A stretch of 64,000 nt of DNA from an uncultured Desulfovibrionaceae bacterium (GTDB taxonomy: Bacteria > Desulfobacterota > Desulfovibrionia > Desulfovibrionales > Desulfovibrionaceae), in contig CAYJKC010000007.1 in the NCBI GenBank assembly GCA_964370675.1, forward strand, positions 959 to 64,958, given 5' to 3'. The position numbers and the translations under genes were made by a program. Positions 52,832 through 61,060 of this stretch are shown here, one piece after another. The notes under the pieces are model-generated. The model did no database searches, had not been told where the DNA came from, and saw only the letters and a program-made list of their open reading frames with translations. Positions within the stretch are counted from its first letter, which is position 1; each line of letters opens with the position of its first letter.

Positions 52832-54277
52832 ATGGTTTTTAGTTCTCTACCATTTCTACTCCTATTTTTACCCATAAGTATTCTTGGTTACTACCTGTTA
52901 TTAAGGCATAACTATGCTAAGTACGCCATACCATTTTTACTTTTGGCATCTTTATTCTTTTATGCTTATTGGAAGCCAGTATATTTATTAATTATTTTAT
53001 TTTCTATCCTTGCTAATTTCTTCTTGGGTCAAGCTATAAATAAAGCCACTAAACATAGAAAATTAATTTTTATTATAGGTATATCAATCAATTTACTATT
53101 GCTAGGATATTATAAGTATTCAGATTTTTTACTTGATACTATCAATCAAATTTTTGCAAGCCAATTTCCCATAGCAAATATTGTCCTGCCCATTGGTATA
53201 AGCTTTTATACATTTCAGCAAATTGCATATCTTTCAGATATATACACAAAAAAGCATATTAACCACTCAGGTGGATTTTTTGAGTATGCAGCCTTTGTAT
53301 GCTTTTTCCCTCAACTTATTGCCGGACCAATTGTTCATCATGCTGAAATGATGCCACAATTTACCAATAAACAAAACCAAGTCTTACAGTGGGATAACAT
53401 GTATAAAGGCTTATGCTTTTTAAGCATGGGTCTTGCCAAAAAAGTCTTGGTGGCAGATCACATTTCTCCACTAGCAAACTATGCCTTTGACGAAAGTACT
53501 TCTTTAAGCTTTTTAGAGGCCATTTTTGGAAGTATCGCTTATACCTTGCAATTATATTTTGATTTTTCAGGCTATGCAGACATGGCTATAGGTTGCGCAT
53601 TGTTTTTTAACATTACGCTACCTTTTAATTTTAACTCTCCATATAAAGCACTAAGCATTCAAGATTTTTGGAGAAGGTGGCACATGACTCTTTCGCGTTG
53701 GTTACGCGATTATCTATACATACCCCTTGGTGGCAATAAAGGTAGTGATGCGCGCACCATGGTCAATTTATTTTTAACCTTTCTGCTTGGTGGCATTTGG
53801 CATGGAGCCGGATGGACCTTTGTTCTTTGGGGCACATTGCATGGCATTGCTCTAGTTATACATAGGTTATGGTCAAAGATTTTAAATTGTAATATGCCAA
53901 AATTTTTGGCTTGGAGCTTAACATTTTCATTTGTTGTGCTTGCTTGGATTCCCTTTAGAGCTATAAACTTTGAGCGAACTACACTTTTCATAGATGGTCT
54001 GCTCTTGCAAAATGGTTTTTTTGTCAGGCATGAATTTTCCAAAATGTGTTACGATACATGGAGAAATACCTTTGCTATTAAAGGTGGTATTGGAGAATAT
54101 AGCTTAATTTTCTTTGGCTTATTAATAGCTTGTGTAAGCTTAAAAAACTCTCAAGAGTTGATAGAATTTATCACACGTAAAACCTATAGCATTTACATAG
54201 TGCTTCTTTTAACTCTTTGCCTTACTGTGCTTGTTTTACCAGGATATGTGCCTGAATTTATATATTTTCAATTTTAA
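52832..54277 (+). CDS. MBOAT-family membrane O-acyltransferase (AlgI/DltB/PatA-like), copy 1, with a C-terminal FIYFQF motif
   Basis: 481 aa, polytopic. FYTFQQIAYL, FFPQLIAGPIVHH and DFWRRWHMTLSRWLRDYLYIPLGGNKGS (invariant MBOAT His). Ends ...LPGYVPEFIYFQF*. Confidence 0.9.
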   Translation: MVFSSLPFLLLFLPISILGYYLLLRHNYAKYAIPFLLLASLFFYAYWKPVYLLIILFSILANFFLGQAINKATKHRKLIFIIGISINLLLLGYYKYSDFLLDTINQIFASQFPIANIVLPIGISFYTFQQIAYLSDIYTKKHINHSGGFFEYAAFVCFFPQLIAGPIVHHAEMMPQFTNKQNQVLQWDNMYKGLCFLSMGLAKKVLVADHISPLANYAFDESTSLSFLEAIFGSIAYTLQLYFDFSGYADMAIGCALFFNITLPFNFNSPYKALSIQDFWRRWHMTLSRWLRDYLYIPLGGNKGSDARTMVNLFLTFLLGGIWHGAGWTFVLWGTLHGIALVIHRLWSKILNCNMPKFLAWSLTFSFVVLAWIPFRAINFERTTLFIDGLLLQNGFFVRHEFSKMCYDTWRNTFAIKGGIGEYSLIFFGLLIACVSLKNSQELIEFITRKTYSIYIVLLLTLCLTVLVLPGYVPEFIYFQF

Positions 54278-54288
54278 GAGCTTTTTAT

Positions 54289-55554
54289 ATGAACTATAAA
54301 AATAAATTTATTACCGCCATAAGCATACCAATTATTTTTAATGTGGTTTTATTTTCTATTATTTTTGCTCTTCTAATCAATTATGATCACTTACAATTAA
54401 AAGAATATGATTATTATGATGCCAATAAATTTATTGCTCTGCCTAATATGCGCTTACAAGCCAAGGGTATTATAAACAATGTTGATTTTAATAGCATTAT
54501 ATTAGGTTCTTCTATGCTAGCTAATACTTCAGCCTTAGAGGCATCGCAGCTTTTTGGGGGCACATTTGTAAACCTTTCCATTTTAGGCGCAAGAACATAT
54601 GAAAGAGCTTTTATTTTTGAAGATACTTTTAGGCATAAAAAAATAAAAAATGTTATATATTCCTTAGATGTATACCATAGACCCAAGGAAGAAAGTTCGC
54701 AACTTGATAATTGGCAATTATTATATGACCAAAGCAAACTGAATGACTTAGTTGTATTACTACAACCTAAATATATAGTTGGTGCCATGAAAAAAGTTTT
54801 AACACCATATACTGCTTATGATTTTAACATAATAGATCATATAAAAATTAGCAAAAAACCCTTAATTGCCCACATAGATTTTTTTAATAGCCCTATTGAA
54901 TGGATGAGTAAACCAGATCATGTTGTGCACTTTGGTGGTCTTGCCAATTGGGTCGAAAATATAGGTGCTTTAAATACTGGAAAATTTTTACTTCAAACCC
55001 TACCTGCAACACTACAAAGTCTTACAACATATCCCAAAGTTAACTATGAAAGTGTTAACGTTGAGGAAGAAAAACAATATATTGAAAAGTATTTTCTACG
55101 CTTTGTAAAAGAACACCCTGAAACAAAGTTTTATGTTGTTTTTCCACCCTACTACAGATTTTACTATGCCCGTGACCTAGTTAAAGACGGTAAGTATTTT
55201 ATGCATCAGAAAATCACGAGGTTTATGGTAGATGCGGCTAAAAAATATGATAATTTATACATTTATGGTTTTGAAGACTTAGCTTTTTTAGATGATATTA
55301 GCAATTATATGGATATAACCCATTATCATAGTCGCTTTAATCAGTTTATGCTTGAAGCCATGAGCAAAAATGAACATCGCTTAACTGAGCAAAATGTAAA
55401 TGCATATATTGCTAAATGCGAACAATTGACCAGAAACTTTGATATTCAAAAACTATACGACGAGTCACAACAGCTTTTGCGTGAATACAAGCTGCCCACC
55501 ACTTGGGAAGACTTTTTATACCTACGCAAAAAATATGATGAAAATTCATTATAA
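54289..55554 (+). CDS. Membrane-anchored partner of MBOAT-1. Putative SGNH/DltD-like acyl transferase.
   Basis: 421 aa. One N-terminal TM helix, conserved ILGSSM serine motif and C-terminal DITHYH (Asp-x-x-His). 11 nt after the MBOAT-1 stop. The fold assignment is motif-based inference. Confidence 0.5.
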   Translation: MNYKNKFITAISIPIIFNVVLFSIIFALLINYDHLQLKEYDYYDANKFIALPNMRLQAKGIINNVDFNSIILGSSMLANTSALEASQLFGGTFVNLSILGARTYERAFIFEDTFRHKKIKNVIYSLDVYHRPKEESSQLDNWQLLYDQSKLNDLVVLLQPKYIVGAMKKVLTPYTAYDFNIIDHIKISKKPLIAHIDFFNSPIEWMSKPDHVVHFGGLANWVENIGALNTGKFLLQTLPATLQSLTTYPKVNYESVNVEEEKQYIEKYFLRFVKEHPETKFYVVFPPYYRFYYARDLVKDGKYFMHQKITRFMVDAAKKYDNLYIYGFEDLAFLDDISNYMDITHYHSRFNQFMLEAMSKNEHRLTEQNVNAYIAKCEQLTRNFDIQKLYDESQQLLREYKLPTTWEDFLYLRKKYDENSL

Positions 55555-55649
55555 ATACTAAATTGTAATTTAATACTTCTTAAAGATAAAACTCACATCA
55601 CTTATTATGTGTTTTATTAGCCAAATTTGTTTACATATGATGCAAAGAG

Positions 55650-56882
55650 TTATTCAGGCAAAGCAGTATGATTATTTTGGCGTAATAGCTTTTGTGATTC
55701 ATCATAAATTTTTTGTAAGTCATAATCTTTAGCAAGCTTATAAAATTTTGCAAGATAGGCATCAACATTTTGCAAGTTAATTTTGTGCTTACCTTCTGCT
55801 ATAGACTGAAGTATATAACTATTATAGCTATTTTTATAGTGACGCACATCTCTAAAGTTTTTAATATCACCCGCAATGTTTTGGTCACCAAAGGCATAAA
55901 TGGATAAATTATCGTACTTTTCTGCTTGTTCTACCAAGTATTTAAAAGCTTTTTCAAAACTATAAAAATCCTTCCCACCATCAATGTTTAAAGCAATAGC
56001 ATAATATGCACGGTAATATGGGGGCTGTATTATATCAAATTTAGTTTCTGGATGTTCTTTAACAAAGCTTAAAATATATTTATCAATATAGTCTTTATAT
56101 TTATCAATATTTATATCTTTGGGGTCCATAGTTGGTATTTTGTGCATATCTTCAATAGACTTTGGCAACATATCTACCAAAAAGGTTTTAATCTCTGGAA
56201 TTTCTAAACGTTTTGCCCAAAATTCTAAACCGCCAAAAAGCGAATCTCTTTCACCATCAACAACCCAATCTGCAATGGGGGTATCAAAAAATTCTATGTC
56301 TGCAGGTGTAGGCTTGGTGCTAACTTTATAATGCTTTTTTTCTATTAAATTAGAAAGTTCATCAGAAGGAAGAATAAACTTAAATGCTCCTGTCACATAA
56401 TTTGCGTCAAACAATACGAATAGATCATTAAAAATATTTTTGTCATATAATAATTCCCAATACTTGGGCTTATCAAGTTCTAAGGTTGGCTCAAAATCAA
56501 ATTCAAAAGAATATATGACATTTTTTACATTTTTTTCACGAAATAAAGCTTTAAGCACTATATATCTTTCATAAAAAGTGGAAGCTCTAATGGAAAGATT
56601 AACAAATTTTCCACCAAATAATTTTGATGCTTCGCTAGCTTTAGCAGTTTCAATTAATGATGTGCCAAGTATTACACTATTAAAATCAACATTATTTATA
56701 ATGCCCATGGCTTGTATGCGCATAGCTGGAGAAGCCGAAAATTTATTACCATCATAAAAATCGTGTTTGCGCAATTGAAGGTGGTCATAATTAATAAGCA
56801 AGGCTAAAACAGCCAAAAAAAATATGGCACAAATAATTAGCGGAACTACTATAATTTTTATGGCACTATTTTTATGGTTCAT
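55650..56882 (-). CDS. Membrane-anchored partner of MBOAT-2 (paralog of 54289-55554)
   Basis: 410 aa. Shares LLINYDHLQL, GIINNVDFNS, ILGTSL, LFGG.FVNLSI, FVKEHPETKF, DVRHYK and KIYDESQKLL blocks with copy 1. Confidence 0.5.
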   Translation of the reverse strand: MNHKNSAIKIIVVPLIICAIFFLAVLALLINYDHLQLRKHDFYDGNKFSASPAMRIQAMGIINNVDFNSVILGTSLIETAKASEASKLFGGKFVNLSIRASTFYERYIVLKALFREKNVKNVIYSFEFDFEPTLELDKPKYWELLYDKNIFNDLFVLFDANYVTGAFKFILPSDELSNLIEKKHYKVSTKPTPADIEFFDTPIADWVVDGERDSLFGGLEFWAKRLEIPEIKTFLVDMLPKSIEDMHKIPTMDPKDINIDKYKDYIDKYILSFVKEHPETKFDIIQPPYYRAYYAIALNIDGGKDFYSFEKAFKYLVEQAEKYDNLSIYAFGDQNIAGDIKNFRDVRHYKNSYNSYILQSIAEGKHKINLQNVDAYLAKFYKLAKDYDLQKIYDESQKLLRQNNHTALPE

Positions 56883-56891
56883 AATTATCTC

Positions 56892-58337
56892 TTAAAACTG
56901 AAAATATATAAATTCAGGACTATAACCTGGTAAGACAAGGTAAATTAACGAAAGGGTTAAGAGAGCAATAATATAAAGCATAAATGATTTTTTGCCTATG
57001 TATTGCATAAGCTCTTGAGTATTTTTTTGGCTTATGCATAGTATGGTAAGTGCTATTAAAAGCACAGTATATTCAATTACACCACCACCAATACCAAATG
57101 AGTTTCGCCAAGTATTATAACACATTTTTGCAAACTCTTCTCTAATCCCAAAGCCATTCAAACCTGTAAGACCATCAATAAACAACTTAGCACGCTCAAA
57201 ATTAATGGTTCTAAGCAAAATACCCGATAAACCTACAAAAATGAATGTAATTACCCAAGCGCATATCTTAGGCATTTTAAGCCCATAAATTTGCGACCAA
57301 GCTCTGTTAATGACCAAAGCAATGCCGTGCAATGCACCCCAAAGCACATAGTTCCAGCCAGCACCATGCCATATGCCCCCAAGTAAAAATGGCACAAAGA
57401 TATTGCGCATGGTTTGCCAAGAGCTACCCTTATTACCACCCAAGGGGAAGTAAAGATAATCGCGTAGCCAGCGTGAGAGGGTCATATGCCACCTTCTCCA
57501 AAAGTCTTGAATACTTAATGCCTTAAATGGCGAATTGAAGTTTAGAGGTAGTTGAATATTGAAAAAAAGTGCACAGCCTATGGCCATATCGGCATAGCCT
57601 GAAAAGTCAAAATAAATTTGCATTAGATATGCAAGCCCACCAAACAGTGATTCTAAAAAGCTTAGTGAGTGGGCTTGATCAAAACTATAACCCACCAAGG
57701 GAGATAAGTTATCTGCAATTAAAACTTTTTTGGCAAGGCCAATACTTAAAAAACAAAGACCTGTATGAATGTTTTCCCAGCGTACAACTTGATTTTGTTT
57801 ATCTGCAAATTGAGGCATCATTTCAGCATGATGTACAATGGGACCAGCTATTAATTGTGGGAAAAAACACACAAAGGTAGCATATTCAACAAATCCGCCG
57901 GCATGATCAATATGCTTTTTAGTAAAAATATCTGTAAGATATGCAATTTGTTGGAAAGTATAGAAGCTAATGCCTATGGGCAAAATTATATGTGTTAAGG
58001 GGATTTGAGTGCTAAATGCTTCATTTAAATTGGTAATAAAAAAGTCAGTGTATTTGAAATAAGCCAAAAGCATTAAGTTCATGCTCACGCCAAGAATAAA
58101 TATTTGTTTGCGGCGTGGCTCATAATTATTCATGGACTGACCTAGACCATAGTTAGCTCCAATGGAAAATATAATCAGTAATAAATATACAGGGTTCCAA
58201 TAAGCATAAAAGAACAATGACGCCACTAACAAAAATGGAATAACGAGTTTACCATAATTATAGCGTAATAAAAGATAGTAAATGACTATGGTAATAGGTA
58301 AAAATAAAAGGAGAAAAGGTAATGAGCTAAAAACCAT
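56892..58337 (-). CDS. MBOAT-family membrane O-acyltransferase, copy 2, with a C-terminal FIYFQF motif
   Basis: Collinear with copy 1 and has the same catalytic blocks. Ends ...LPGYSPEFIYFQF*. Start taken at MVFSSLPFLLLFLP (58337), matching copy 1. Confidence 0.9.
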   Translation of the reverse strand: MVFSSLPFLLLFLPITIVIYYLLLRYNYGKLVIPFLLVASLFFYAYWNPVYLLLIIFSIGANYGLGQSMNNYEPRRKQIFILGVSMNLMLLAYFKYTDFFITNLNEAFSTQIPLTHIILPIGISFYTFQQIAYLTDIFTKKHIDHAGGFVEYATFVCFFPQLIAGPIVHHAEMMPQFADKQNQVVRWENIHTGLCFLSIGLAKKVLIADNLSPLVGYSFDQAHSLSFLESLFGGLAYLMQIYFDFSGYADMAIGCALFFNIQLPLNFNSPFKALSIQDFWRRWHMTLSRWLRDYLYFPLGGNKGSSWQTMRNIFVPFLLGGIWHGAGWNYVLWGALHGIALVINRAWSQIYGLKMPKICAWVITFIFVGLSGILLRTINFERAKLFIDGLTGLNGFGIREEFAKMCYNTWRNSFGIGGGVIEYTVLLIALTILCISQKNTQELMQYIGKKSFMLYIIALLTLSLIYLVLPGYSPEFIYFQF

Positions 58338-58497
58338 AGAAAAAAAACCTATACACAAAAATTAAGTTTGCTTCATGAAAAATATGAGAAATGTTCAACA
58401 GCGTAGGCGTCTAACATTTTTATGGTGCAAAGTAAACCAATGAAAATGGTACGTGATTGTGATTTGGCTACTTTTGCCTATGATGTGATGAAAATGA

Positions 58498-60873
58498 CTA
58501 CTGTTTGACAACTTGTTCTAAATAAAGAGCTAAAACAGCAATGGCTCTATCACAGAGGGTAAACAGTGGAATTCCAGCATCCTTAATGGCTTTTCTTAAA
58601 GAATCAAATTGGCTTGAACCATCTACCACAATAATAAGTGGCTTTTCAGCTTCATGGGCTATTCTTAGCACATGATGATAAATTGACCCTTCACGAGTAA
58701 AATCAAAGTCAGTCGATTGGCTAGGATCTACGGTTAATGTTGTGGGTGCATGTGGTACAATACTTAATATGACCACATCGATATTAGGGTCATTAAGAGC
58801 AAGCTCAGTAATTTTTGCATGCACCTCATCATTGGAAGATGGGTTTATATCTAAGGGGTTTACCACTTGTACTAATTTTGAAAGATTGTGTTCATCAAAA
58901 ACCGCCTGCATTTTAGCCTTGGTTTGGTCTGAAAAGCTTGCAAGGGTGATATTATATTCATCAGATTGAATGGAGTCTGCCATACCAACCACTTCAAAAC
59001 CAGCAGAGCTTATGGCGGCAATACGCTTACCGCTAACGTTTTTTCCTGCTAAAGACTCTGTTAAAAGCACTAAATCTTGAAATTCGGTGAAAGTTCTTGC
59101 TACAATACCCCCAGCTTGGGTTATGGAAGACTCACAAACCATATAATCTCCGGCAAGAGAAGCGGTATGTCCGCTGGTGGCATCCTTGCCTTCTGGAGTG
59201 CGCCCTGCTTTATAAAACACCACATTCTTACCAGCTGCCACAGCTCTTTTTACTGACTTTGCAAAGGCAAGACCATCAAGCTCTTTAAATCCTTCGGCAT
59301 ATACAGCTATGGTATTAACTTTATCTGAAGTTTCAAAGTATTGCATCATATCACCCATGGTTAAATCGGTTTGATTGCCCATGGAGATTAAATAAGCCGG
59401 ATTCATTTCTGGCACTTGGTTAAAACGATTAAGCAAAAAGCCACCACTTTGGCTTATTAGAGCTAGGGAGCGAGGTTTTACTCCCTTATACGGTGCAACT
59501 GAAAGCATTTTTTCTGTGGGAATAAACCACGTGTCATATTGCCCATGTCGAGAAATAACCCCCATACAATTTGCTCCTAAAAACACAGGAGAATGCTCCT
59601 GCATATGTGCTTCTTGTATGGAGTCAACCATTTGCTTTGCAATGATTTTACTCTCTTCGGTTTCGCCAAGCCCGCCCGGAATTAACAAAACACCATTAGC
59701 TTTATTATATTTCAAAATATCATTAACAAAGTCTGGTACATATGATGCATCAATGGCAACAATAAGTAGATCAAAAACGCCGTCAAAGTTTTTAATATGC
59801 GGCACACATTTTATACCACTTTCATCTTCACCTTGCTTAATAATTACTACGTTTTCTTTGGGATATTGAGCCTCTAGTATATTTTCAAGAATAATACGCC
59901 CGAAATTACGTCTACTGGATGAAACACCTACAATACCAATGGTTTTAGGGTGTAATAATTTATGAACTTGCCCTAGTGGTCTTGGATGTGGCAGTGAAAT
60001 TTGCCTTGAAAACTTACATAAACCATCTAGCGGAACCATGAGATAATCAGTAAAGGCAAAAGGATTAATTTCAAATTCATCAATTATAAATTCTGATTCT
60101 TGATTAAGTGGTGAAAAATAATTACCAATTTGTATTATAGCCTGAAAGCATTCAATTAATTGTTCATCAGTAACAATACGCCTTTGACCACGCGTAAGAC
60201 CTGCAAGTTTTTTATAAGATATGGTATTTTTATAAATTTCAAAAAATTCTTCACCATTAAGGGTGGCTGTAGGTGCTGCCACTATGGCTTGCCCTTTTCT
60301 AAACCGCTCGGCATAAAGTTCAGTATCAGTACCACCAAGACCTGCTGAAATTACCATGCCAAATTCATTGGTACGTCGAAGACCCACAAAAAGTTCATTG
60401 CCAAAGCTTGATGAATCCGGTGGCATATATTGCACTTGCAAAATGCCCTGGATATGCTCCTTTATAGCATTTTTTAGCTCTGCACCGTGTAAGTTTTTAT
60501 ATACTTCAGGAGCATGACTTGGATTTTTTTCTATAATTGCTTGATAATTTTCTGGAACTTCCACATACATACGCCGCAAAGCAGAAAGTATATTTTCTGG
60601 ATTTTTAGGGACAATGCTAACCCCACCCACTTCTGTTTTATGCATAATAGTTGGTGAAACAATTTTTAGAACTGTCTTTTCACCAGGCAAGACCATTAAG
60701 CCTTCGGATAAAGGTTTTACATTTTTAGGTAAGAATAAATATCTTGGTGGGGTTTCAGAACCACTTATTATAATAAAATCATAAACTTCATGTTCAAATA
60801 AAATATTGCGCCCATCATTTTGTGCATTTTTAAAAAGCTCTGTAATACTAGCATAATTGATATTTAATTCCAT
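58498..60873 (-). CDS. ADP-forming acyl-CoA synthetase family protein (acetate--CoA ligase-like), with ATP-grasp domain first
   Basis: N-terminal ATP-grasp part (KIVSPTIMHKTEVGGV), then CoA-binding Rossmann (IGIVGVSSSRRNFG), ISQSGG and the phosphohistidine loop SGHTASLAG. Start taken at MELNINY (60873). Confidence 0.8.
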   Translation of the reverse strand: MELNINYASITELFKNAQNDGRNILFEHEVYDFIIISGSETPPRYLFLPKNVKPLSEGLMVLPGEKTVLKIVSPTIMHKTEVGGVSIVPKNPENILSALRRMYVEVPENYQAIIEKNPSHAPEVYKNLHGAELKNAIKEHIQGILQVQYMPPDSSSFGNELFVGLRRTNEFGMVISAGLGGTDTELYAERFRKGQAIVAAPTATLNGEEFFEIYKNTISYKKLAGLTRGQRRIVTDEQLIECFQAIIQIGNYFSPLNQESEFIIDEFEINPFAFTDYLMVPLDGLCKFSRQISLPHPRPLGQVHKLLHPKTIGIVGVSSSRRNFGRIILENILEAQYPKENVVIIKQGEDESGIKCVPHIKNFDGVFDLLIVAIDASYVPDFVNDILKYNKANGVLLIPGGLGETEESKIIAKQMVDSIQEAHMQEHSPVFLGANCMGVISRHGQYDTWFIPTEKMLSVAPYKGVKPRSLALISQSGGFLLNRFNQVPEMNPAYLISMGNQTDLTMGDMMQYFETSDKVNTIAVYAEGFKELDGLAFAKSVKRAVAAGKNVVFYKAGRTPEGKDATSGHTASLAGDYMVCESSITQAGGIVARTFTEFQDLVLLTESLAGKNVSGKRIAAISSAGFEVVGMADSIQSDEYNITLASFSDQTKAKMQAVFDEHNLSKLVQVVNPLDINPSSNDEVHAKITELALNDPNIDVVILSIVPHAPTTLTVDPSQSTDFDFTREGSIYHHVLRIAHEAEKPLIIVVDGSSQFDSLRKAIKDAGIPLFTLCDRAIAVLALYLEQVVKQ

Positions 60874-60968
60874 AATAGACCTTTTAGTGCAAAATCCAAA
60901 AACATTAGTTAAGCATTTAATCAAGTTAGACAAAATACATTAATAAGCAAGTTTGTCAAGCTAAGCAT

Positions 60969-61006
60969 AAAAACAAATTAGCCCCTTGTATTAAACAAAG
61001 GGCTAA
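60969..61006 (-). terminator. Rho-independent terminator of the 61061-63445 chemoreceptor gene
   Basis: 12-bp stem, ttagccccttgt with acaaagggctaa, one mismatch. A T-rich tract follows on the minus strand. Confidence 0.55.
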
Positions 61007-61060
61007 TATTAATAGTAAAACATATTTGACTTTAGGCTATATTACTATTTACGGCATATA

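Follow-up and report, generated by a model that had tools for sequence, protein, structure and literature searches.

The window analyzed here is a 64,000-nucleotide (nt) stretch of contig CAYJKC010000007.1 from an uncultured Desulfovibrionaceae bacterium, and it carries two copies of a two-gene module, each of which encodes an MBOAT protein and a membrane-anchored partner. We propose that each module is a two-component, extracytoplasmic MBOAT–SGNH-type O-acyltransferase acting on an envelope glycan, a reading to which we assign a probability of about three in four. In the proposed mechanism, the MBOAT would draw an acyl group from a thioester in the cytoplasm, for which acetyl-CoA is the most likely candidate, and His324 in the MBOAT funnel would help to load the group onto Tyr478 of the enzyme's own EFIYFQF tail, a shuttle that two extra transmembrane helices would carry at the periplasmic face. 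The co-translated, anchored partner would then accept the acyl group on Ser75, aided by an Asp-x-x-His motif and an invariant Asn, and would hand it to a hydroxyl of an envelope glycan, i.e., peptidoglycan, the core or O-antigen of lipopolysaccharide (LPS), or another polysaccharide. Shown directly here are the organization of the genes and their duplication, the assignment of the MBOATs to their family, an SGNH-like fold in the predicted structures, the conservation of residues and the obligate linkage of MBOAT and partner; the relay is modeled on PatA/PatB and DltB/DltX/DltD (PMC12148441), and it is by this analogy that we infer the chemistry of each step, acetyl-CoA as the donor and a glycan as the acceptor. 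A PatA with a like tail auto-acetylates the tail Tyr, and PatB takes acetyl from a Tyr-peptide (PMC12148441). A preliminary description of this DNA had already proposed a self-contained acylation relay; the tail, fold and residues that it invoked are conserved, while the chemical steps are carried over from the analogous systems. The module is, as judged from structure prediction, the known design of an MBOAT with a fused shuttle, paired with an uncatalogued and widespread class of SGNH-fold partner.

Four intact open reading frames (ORFs), two for MBOATs and two for partners, form an inverted duplication with convergent stop codons 95 bp apart. Module 1 (lineage A) comprises MBOAT-1 (481 amino acids (aa); 52832..54277, + strand) and partner-1 (421 aa; 54289..55554, +), an N-terminal membrane anchor followed by a domain for which AlphaFold2 and Foldseek predict a periplasmic SGNH fold. 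Module 2 (lineage B) comprises MBOAT-2 (481 aa, counted from its ATG; 56892..58337, −) and partner-2 (410 aa; 55650..56882, −), which likewise was modeled with AlphaFold2 and compared with Foldseek. An AT-rich spacer (55555..55649) separates the stop codons. The genes within each module are 11 nt (module 1) and 9 nt (module 2) apart, which suggests coupled translation. The MBOATs are 69% identical across 467 aa without a gap and the partners are 45% identical (E = 7e-125), in keeping with the end-to-end identity of about 70% and the identity of about one half that had been estimated by eye. The duplication is confirmed independently of translation by inverted repeats in the DNA itself, whose arms measure 410, 378, 212 and 110 nt and show 72–75% complementarity, so that the tail-to-tail arrangement of the preliminary description stands, as do its ORF coordinates. 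The end given there for the region as a whole, 58358, is an in-frame TTG upstream of the MBOAT-2 ATG at 58337; the ATG is favored as the start because the N-terminus MVFSSLPFLLLFLP is conserved. A promoter and terminator consensus scan, the counts of which were at shuffle level, revealed no consensus terminator in the 95-bp spacer, and Rfam returned merely two sub-threshold chance matches.

Both MBOATs belong to Pfam family PF03062 (E=1.4e-38 and 133.5 bits for MBOAT-1; E=4.5e-36 and 125.2 bits for MBOAT-2; cut-off 27). The closest sequence match of MBOAT-1 in the PDB is DltB (E=6e-22); however, with 165.7 and 162.4 bits, the two proteins do not reach the cut-off of 375 for the DltB equivalog TIGR04091. 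The MBOAT superfamily has an invariant catalytic histidine, represented by His336 in DltB and His379 in HHAT. In MBOAT-1, His324 of the motif GGIWHGAGW (53801..53803, +) aligns with DltB His336 (6bug) and is thus the predicted catalytic residue, with its equivalent in MBOAT-2 at 57366..57368 (−). Conservation was assessed in 18 linked MBOATs, i.e., neighbors of partner homologues in Desulfovibrionaceae, Helicobacter, a Pseudomonas metagenome-assembled genome (MAG) and metagenomic loci. His324 is kept in 17/17 of those that cover the position, the eighteenth having an assembly gap there. The preliminary description had placed the invariant histidine in the DFWRRWH block instead, but the residue of that block, His284 (53681..53683, +), aligns with DltB His289, and its column contains 16 His, one Asn and one gap. 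Both histidines are present in both MBOAT copies.

The feature that connects these enzymes to the proposed relay lies beyond the catalytic core. Two extra hydrophobic helices precede the C-terminal tail (aa 419-469 in MBOAT-1; 54086..54238, +), with hydropathy peaks at 419-437 and 451-469 in MBOAT-1 and at 416-434 and 447-465 in MBOAT-2, and judged by hydropathy they fall outside the region that can be aligned with DltB (118-349). Both proteins then end in PGY[VS]PEFIYFQF, which includes an EFIYFQF acyl-shuttle motif of the FXYXXF type (54254..54274, +, with Tyr478 at 54263-54265 in MBOAT-1; 56895..56915, −, with Tyr478 at 56904-56906 in MBOAT-2). A tail of the form E-F-[IL]-Y-[FS]-[QNK]-F closes every one of the 18 linked MBOATs, in which Glu475, Phe476, Tyr478 and Phe481 are each conserved 18/18; conservation of the FIYFQF tail among orthologues, on which the earlier proposal had been staked, is thus borne out in the form E-F-[IL]-Y-x-x-F. 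The tail of a Bacillus thuringiensis MBOAT, read directly, is FLYFNF, and the Campylobacter and B. thuringiensis pairs fit the same picture. Fused FXYXXF tails on non-Dlt bacterial MBOATs are an already published rule.

The partner proteins contain the residues expected of the second half of such a relay. Each has a single N-terminal hydrophobic helix at about residues 8-30, the one transmembrane anchor that had been noted before; in partner-1 (aa 8-30; 54310..54378, +), the hydropathy is 2.65, the modeled helix spans 3-32, and Lys4 and Lys6 lie N-terminal to it. This placement of lysines before a lone N-terminal helix would put the remainder of the protein in the periplasm. The predicted nucleophile of partner-1 is Ser75 in LGSSM (54511..54513, +), which directly follows the modeled strand 69-72 and would constitute SGNH block I. 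Asn95 in FVNLS (54571..54573, +), a candidate oxyanion-hole residue, ends the modeled strand 93-95, and Asp342-Ile-Thr-His345 (DITH; 55312..55323, +) would supply the DxxH of block V. The corresponding residues of partner-2 (all −) are Ser75 in LGTSL (56658-56660), Asn95 (56598-56600) and Asp345-x-x-His348, or DVRH (55839-55850). The order from Ser75 to Asp342-x-x-His345 is the canonical, non-permuted SGNH order. Across 145 diverse relatives, the nucleophile column contains Ser in 142 and Cys in three, the Asp and His of DxxH are each present in 144, and Asn95 is the sole column that is invariant (145/145); the Ser, Asp and His positions picked out in the preliminary description are therefore conserved among homologues. 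A swap to Cys that is confined to a single position is as expected of a catalytic nucleophile. In the three proteins concerned (P0077, P0080 and P0130), the DxxH motif is intact.

The AlphaFold2 models of the partners are confident, with a mean local-distance confidence (pLDDT) of 91.1 and a predicted template-modeling score (pTM) of 0.89 for partner-1 and values of 90.8 and 0.90 for partner-2, and both comprise the N-terminal helix and an alpha/beta core. Their best Foldseek matches in the PDB are all crystal structures of DltD (the top 11 for partner-1 and the top 7 for partner-2), aligned over the full length with a probability of about 1 and a root-mean-square deviation of 11-18 Å. Small SGNH esterases and the SGNH C-terminal domain of OatA follow, with target-normalised TM-scores of 0.50-0.63 and Foldseek probabilities of 0.9-1.0 to 2hsj, 6xpg, 7pzg and 5ufy for the predicted structures; PatB is absent from the top 50 matches of both models. 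The models thus indicate that the partner fold is SGNH-like, in agreement with the fold class expected earlier, and that DltD is its nearest solved, albeit distant, relative. The designation SGNH/DltD-type would therefore hold at the level of predicted fold only, not at the level of sequence. Neither the window partners nor 10 distant members of the family match any Pfam or NCBIfam model; 126 members scanned singly at E<=10 include no match to Lipase_GDSL, DltD, DUF459, ALGX or DHHW; and profiles of the family find no PDB sequence at all at E<=10, DltD and PatB chains included. Alignment with hhalign against a DltD profile, constructed from nine annotated DltD sequences taken from plasmid records, gave a probability of 7.5% with the strand-3 block as the sole aligned segment, while the global and greedy modes of profile alignment gave nothing. 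By eye, the two families give the impression of a common motif order, namely G-[ST]-S, the strand-3 block, [FI]-P-P and DxxH. One DltD sequence, on Bacillus cereus E33L plasmid pBCO_1 (L036, 223-1392), reads DHIRLGW in place of the usual D-x-x-H-LGW, the catalytic His being replaced by Arg.

Three candidate identities were rejected on these grounds: DltD membership by sequence, owing to the hhalign result of 7.5% and the empty global and greedy alignments; PatB identity, owing to the absence of a DUF459 match and of any PatB chain match by profiles; and AlgX/AlgJ or DHHW membership, owing to the non-permuted residue order and the lack of an ALGX or DHHW match. As far as sequence comparison can tell, the partner family is uncatalogued and a member of none of DltD, PatB, AlgX and DHHW. 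It is nevertheless large. At E <= 1e-3, an exhaustive profile search yielded 2,905 cluster representatives, mostly 360-400 aa in length, and 816 of these pass E <= 1e-30; a word-indexed search found 25 relatives. A genome scan located loci with an 8-sequence partner alignment as the query; with a single partner protein it gave no confirmed locus. Members are publicly named 'hypothetical protein' in every case, and literature searches on DltD-like proteins, on MBOAT in the lipooligosaccharide (LOS) of Campylobacter and on MBOAT in Desulfovibrio gave no description of the family. It spans Desulfobacterota, Campylobacterota, Pseudomonadota and Bacillus plasmids and is abundant in Helicobacter and Campylobacter. 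MBOAT–partner pairs are carried by Desulfovibrionaceae MAGs, Helicobacter winghamensis, H. pullorum, Campylobacter lanienae, C. coli, a Pseudomonas MAG and plasmids of B. thuringiensis, the partner of which carries GTSM and DQTHY.

An MBOAT directly adjoins the partner in every locus that is long enough (L001-L010, L012-L015 and L018-L024), and the partner is the sole conserved neighbor of these MBOATs. This linkage bears on whether the partner might instead be a hydrolase, i.e., an Ape1-like O-acyl esterase or a lipase that edits acyl groups, with the MBOAT using another transferase or acting directly. SGNH-fold proteins are mostly esterases, and many of the Foldseek matches below DltD are sialate O-acetylesterases and GDSL lipases, which would suit such a role. 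However, the linkage to the MBOAT is exclusive, the gaps of 9-11 nt suggest coupled translation, the partner is membrane-anchored in the manner of DltD and PatB, the top structural matches are the transferase DltD with the OatA transferase domain also appearing, and the esterase of known systems is encoded by a separate third gene (PMC12148441, PMC9487903). We consider a hydrolase highly improbable and retain the acyltransferase reading for the partner.

The identity of the donor is approached through the neighboring genes. The window modules stand alone among housekeeping genes, with an RNB-domain RNase gene on one side and, on the other, a gene for an 811-aa, ADP-forming acyl-CoA-synthetase-like protein (58498..60933, −), which shares the strand of MBOAT-2 and lies 160 bp upstream of it. 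Its Pfam domains are ATP-grasp_5 first, then CoA_binding_2 and Succ_CoA_lig, with about 190 C-terminal residues unmatched. There is no terminator-like site between this gene and MBOAT-2, and a strong terminator-like hairpin of 13 pairs followed by a T-run (60977-61007, −) lies just upstream of it, after a chemoreceptor gene; the sequence suggests that a transcription unit starts at the synthetase-like gene and may run into MBOAT-2. The synthetase-like gene may be a donor-supply gene. Acetyl-CoA is nevertheless the most likely donor by analogy, given that the MBOATs carry their own shuttle as PatA does and that carrier-protein genes are absent; as the preliminary description had noted for DltA and DltC, the 64-kb window contains no DltA-, DltC- or GNAT-like ORF.

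The main alternative on this point is a Dlt-like aminoacylation, or another non-acetyl acylation, in which a carrier protein would be loaded by an adenylating enzyme encoded elsewhere or the adjacent synthetase would furnish an unusual acyl-CoA. It draws on DltB and DltD being the nearest solved structures to the MBOAT and to the partner fold, respectively, on the 811-aa synthetase-like gene that precedes lineage-B modules in three species, and on a distant relative in a metagenome contig (ERZ27250154; L005, 1550-6566), where genes for a GNAT, a PP-binding protein of 81 aa and an AMP-binding enzyme immediately precede MBOAT and partner. Against it, the window lacks the ORFs mentioned above, both MBOATs fall well short of the cut-off for the DltB equivalog, the shuttle is part of the MBOAT itself, as in PatA, which uses acyl-CoA, rather than located on a DltX microprotein (PMC12148441), and the synthetase linkage is confined to close relatives and could be plain synteny. 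Taken together, we regard a non-acetyl donor as quite improbable and favor acetyl transfer. The L005 MBOAT keeps a fused EFIYFNF tail within its Dlt-like cassette; as read from its sequence, this combination of a carrier-protein donor with a fused shuttle would be outside the published Dlt and PatAB patterns.

Elsewhere, the pair occurs in two classes of context, either within glycan clusters or alone among housekeeping genes. The former, which count in favor of the proposed glycan acylation, include a Wzm/Wzt cluster with methyltransferases and a GT1 (L004), the capsule/GT cluster of L005, an O-antigen-like cluster (L019), a TagF-like/Stealth cluster (L020) and the LOS locus of C. coli (L022), where the MBOAT and a partner-family protein precede gmhA-hldE-hldD-gmhB. 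Flagellar genes lie beside the module in three unrelated lineages, namely fliI (L001, 6879-11158), fliM/fliN (L018, 6522-11131) and flgG (L021, 6387-11832), which may be due to chance, flagellar genes being scattered. In H. pullorum (L023, 5588-8137), the MBOAT gene that precedes the partner follows a neuB-like gene and is broken into three ORFs (216, 167 and 61 aa); it may be a pseudogene or a phase-variable gene. The pair on plasmid pBTHD789-3 of B. thuringiensis HD-789 (L024, 7504-10080), also found on four other B. thuringiensis plasmids, adjoins IS231F and a Tn3 transposase, which indicates that the module is mobile in some lineages. Its MBOAT is 52.7% identical to the window MBOAT over the aligned 72% of the query, and its partner is WP_000278076.1, annotated as hypothetical.

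Several observations weigh against the proposed reading. In fold, the models resemble DltD only modestly (E about 1e-4 to 1e-2, TM-score 0.31-0.40), and neither DltD nor any curated SGNH family has a significant sequence-profile link to the partner family. The position of the invariant Asn, after strand 2 and not after strand 3, makes its role in an oxyanion hole uncertain. Furthermore, no glycan-synthesis genes lie near the modules in the window, and the carrier protein and adenylating enzyme adjoining the L005 relative indicate that donors of a class other than acetyl-CoA are possible.

The two modules are old paralogues that, by sequence, have been retained together. Neighbor-joining trees of the MBOATs and of the partners are congruent: lineage A unites window module 1 with module 1 of locus L007, and lineage B unites window module 2 with module 2 of L007 and with L008. 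The duplication is thus older than the split of these species, and MBOAT and partner have diverged together within each module. The gene order rlmH-thrC-plsY-RNB, module A, module B, synthetase in L007 is syntenic with the window, and the order synthetase, MBOAT-B, partner-B is common to the window, L007 and L008. A 549-aa ORF without a Pfam match (L007, 9835-11484) lies between the convergent modules of L007, the closest syntenic relative, at a position where the window has only 95 bp. An apparent truncation of MBOAT-2 in L007 was rejected, as it reflects a run of N in the assembly.

The preliminary description had further inferred an acquired island from a contrast in G+C. The four genes (30-35% total G+C) are indeed lower than the window mean of 38.8%, but the contrast is smaller than claimed, with 30-38% per kb in this region, and the deficit sits in codon positions 1 and 2. 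The G+C content of third codon positions is 0.293 and 0.313 in the MBOATs and 0.254 and 0.221 in the partners, against a window mean of 0.290 +/- 0.034. With the MBOATs at the window mean in this measure and the arrangement syntenic in L007, there is no good evidence for recent acquisition, and the island was rejected.

The divergence between the paralogues is unevenly distributed. MBOAT identity is 85-90% near the catalytic motifs and falls to its lowest value, 42%, at aa 421-460, within the tail helices; partner identity is 65-68% near Ser75 and 18-42% at residues 100-260, the middle insertion. Since the cores are conserved while the MBOAT tail helices and the partner insertion have diverged, each module probably has an acceptor or site of its own. 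Alternatively, the modules could be redundant, with one donor and one acceptor, and the faster divergence of the partners would reflect relaxed constraint. Partners do outpace MBOATs between orthologues as well (57-63% as opposed to 79-84%, with 79% for MBOAT-1 in L007 and 84% for MBOAT-2 in L008), so that this is a family-wide property. However, in the window and in L007 both lineages survive intact and keep every catalytic residue, as lineage B does in L008, the divergence is concentrated in the two regions just named, and two other lineages (H. winghamensis and C. lanienae) have independently multiplied the partner or the whole module. Redundancy is therefore an unlikely explanation, and distinct acceptors or sites are preferred.

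The two multiplied loci are of interest in their own right. In H. winghamensis (CP063087.1; L018, 8448-15320), two MBOAT–partner modules are arranged as direct repeats after fliM-fliN. Their MBOATs are 93% identical, with 100% identity over aa 1-440 and differences only at aa 441-505, in the tail helices; their partners are 52% identical, yet the last 55 or so aa are identical. In sequence, this mosaic looks like gene conversion or like a swappable cassette that spans the MBOAT tail and most of the partner. C. lanienae NCTC 13004 (L021, 6387-10173) has one MBOAT with two tandem partners (362 and 390 aa), adjoined by two flgG-like rod genes. These sequence patterns fit a model in which the partner, together with the MBOAT surface that docks it, sets acceptor specificity.

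Peptidoglycan, teichoic acids, alginate and cellulose receive acetyl, D-alanyl and similar groups from MBOAT–SGNH pairs, and such acyl marks affect lysozyme resistance, antimicrobial-peptide resistance and biofilm properties. Dlt and PatAB are systems with a solved mechanism, and the catalogued partner classes are only four. Because no Pfam or NCBIfam model detects members of the present family, its definition would allow the annotation of thousands of genes, and the recurrent duplication of partners offers a natural system for locating acceptor specificity.

Among the known systems, AlgI/AlgJ/AlgX, WssH/WssI and the PatA1/PatB1 of Bacillus likewise combine a fused-shuttle MBOAT with an extracytoplasmic Ser-His-Asp transferase that acts on a polysaccharide. 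Partners of the AlgX/DHHW type, however, are circularly permuted, with Asp/His before Ser, and have Pfam families of their own (PMC9487903), whereas the partners described here have the canonical order of Ser followed by DxxH and match neither ALGX nor DHHW. The DltB/DltX/DltD system of teichoic-acid D-alanylation provides the closest solved structures, DltB by sequence and DltD by fold. DltD is equal in length to the partners and, like them, begins with a membrane anchor and has its Ser near residue 70-75 and its DxxH close to the C-terminus; by eye, the motif order G-S-S-E/G-T-S-M, beta-3 block, [FI]-P-P and DxxH is also common to both. In contrast to Dlt, there is no DltX, since the shuttle is fused to the MBOAT, and no DltA or DltC in the window; the MBOATs score below the DltB equivalog cut-off, the partners lack significant profile-profile similarity to DltD and reach only the TM-scores given above, and the hosts of window-type pairs are mostly Gram-negative bacteria without teichoic acid.

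The PatA/PatB system of Neisseria and Campylobacter, an MBOAT with a DUF459 SGNH protein, is similar in that it is a two-gene unit of Gram-negative bacteria (PMC12148441). PatA possesses two extra C-terminal helices that end in FXYXXF, with FIYANF in NgPatA compared with FIYFQF here, and PatB consists of an N-terminal-helix anchor and a periplasmic Ser-Asp-His domain, for which a relay from His to Tyr to Ser to glycan is proposed (PMC12148441). Unlike PatB, none of the 126 scanned members matches DUF459 and profiles recover no PatB chain; moreover, the window modules are accompanied by no ape1 esterase gene, and the partners, at about 400 aa, contain a large helical insertion.

A parallel in gene arrangement is offered by Helicobacter pylori, where HP0855 (PatA) is an MBOAT whose mutant has fewer acetylated muropeptides, and HP0856 always accompanies HP0855 as a hypothetical protein with 'no significant homology to PatB', encoded between HP0855 and gmhA (PMC3517862). 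The evidence for peptidoglycan in this system comes from the MBOAT mutant only, and the position in an LOS locus could equally point to LPS. In C. coli, a partner-family protein occupies the HP0856 position before gmhA, and HP0856, so far unexplained as the companion of H. pylori PatA, is a candidate member of the family. As a broader conjecture, possible but unlikely as a whole, the partner family would be a fifth class of MBOAT partner that includes HP0856, which would make it the 'missing PatB' of Helicobacter; the tail helices of the MBOAT, combined with the partner, would act as an interchangeable cassette for specificity that re-targets a conserved acyl channel, and the two window modules would decorate different polymers, e.g., peptidoglycan and LPS, possibly fed by the synthetase.

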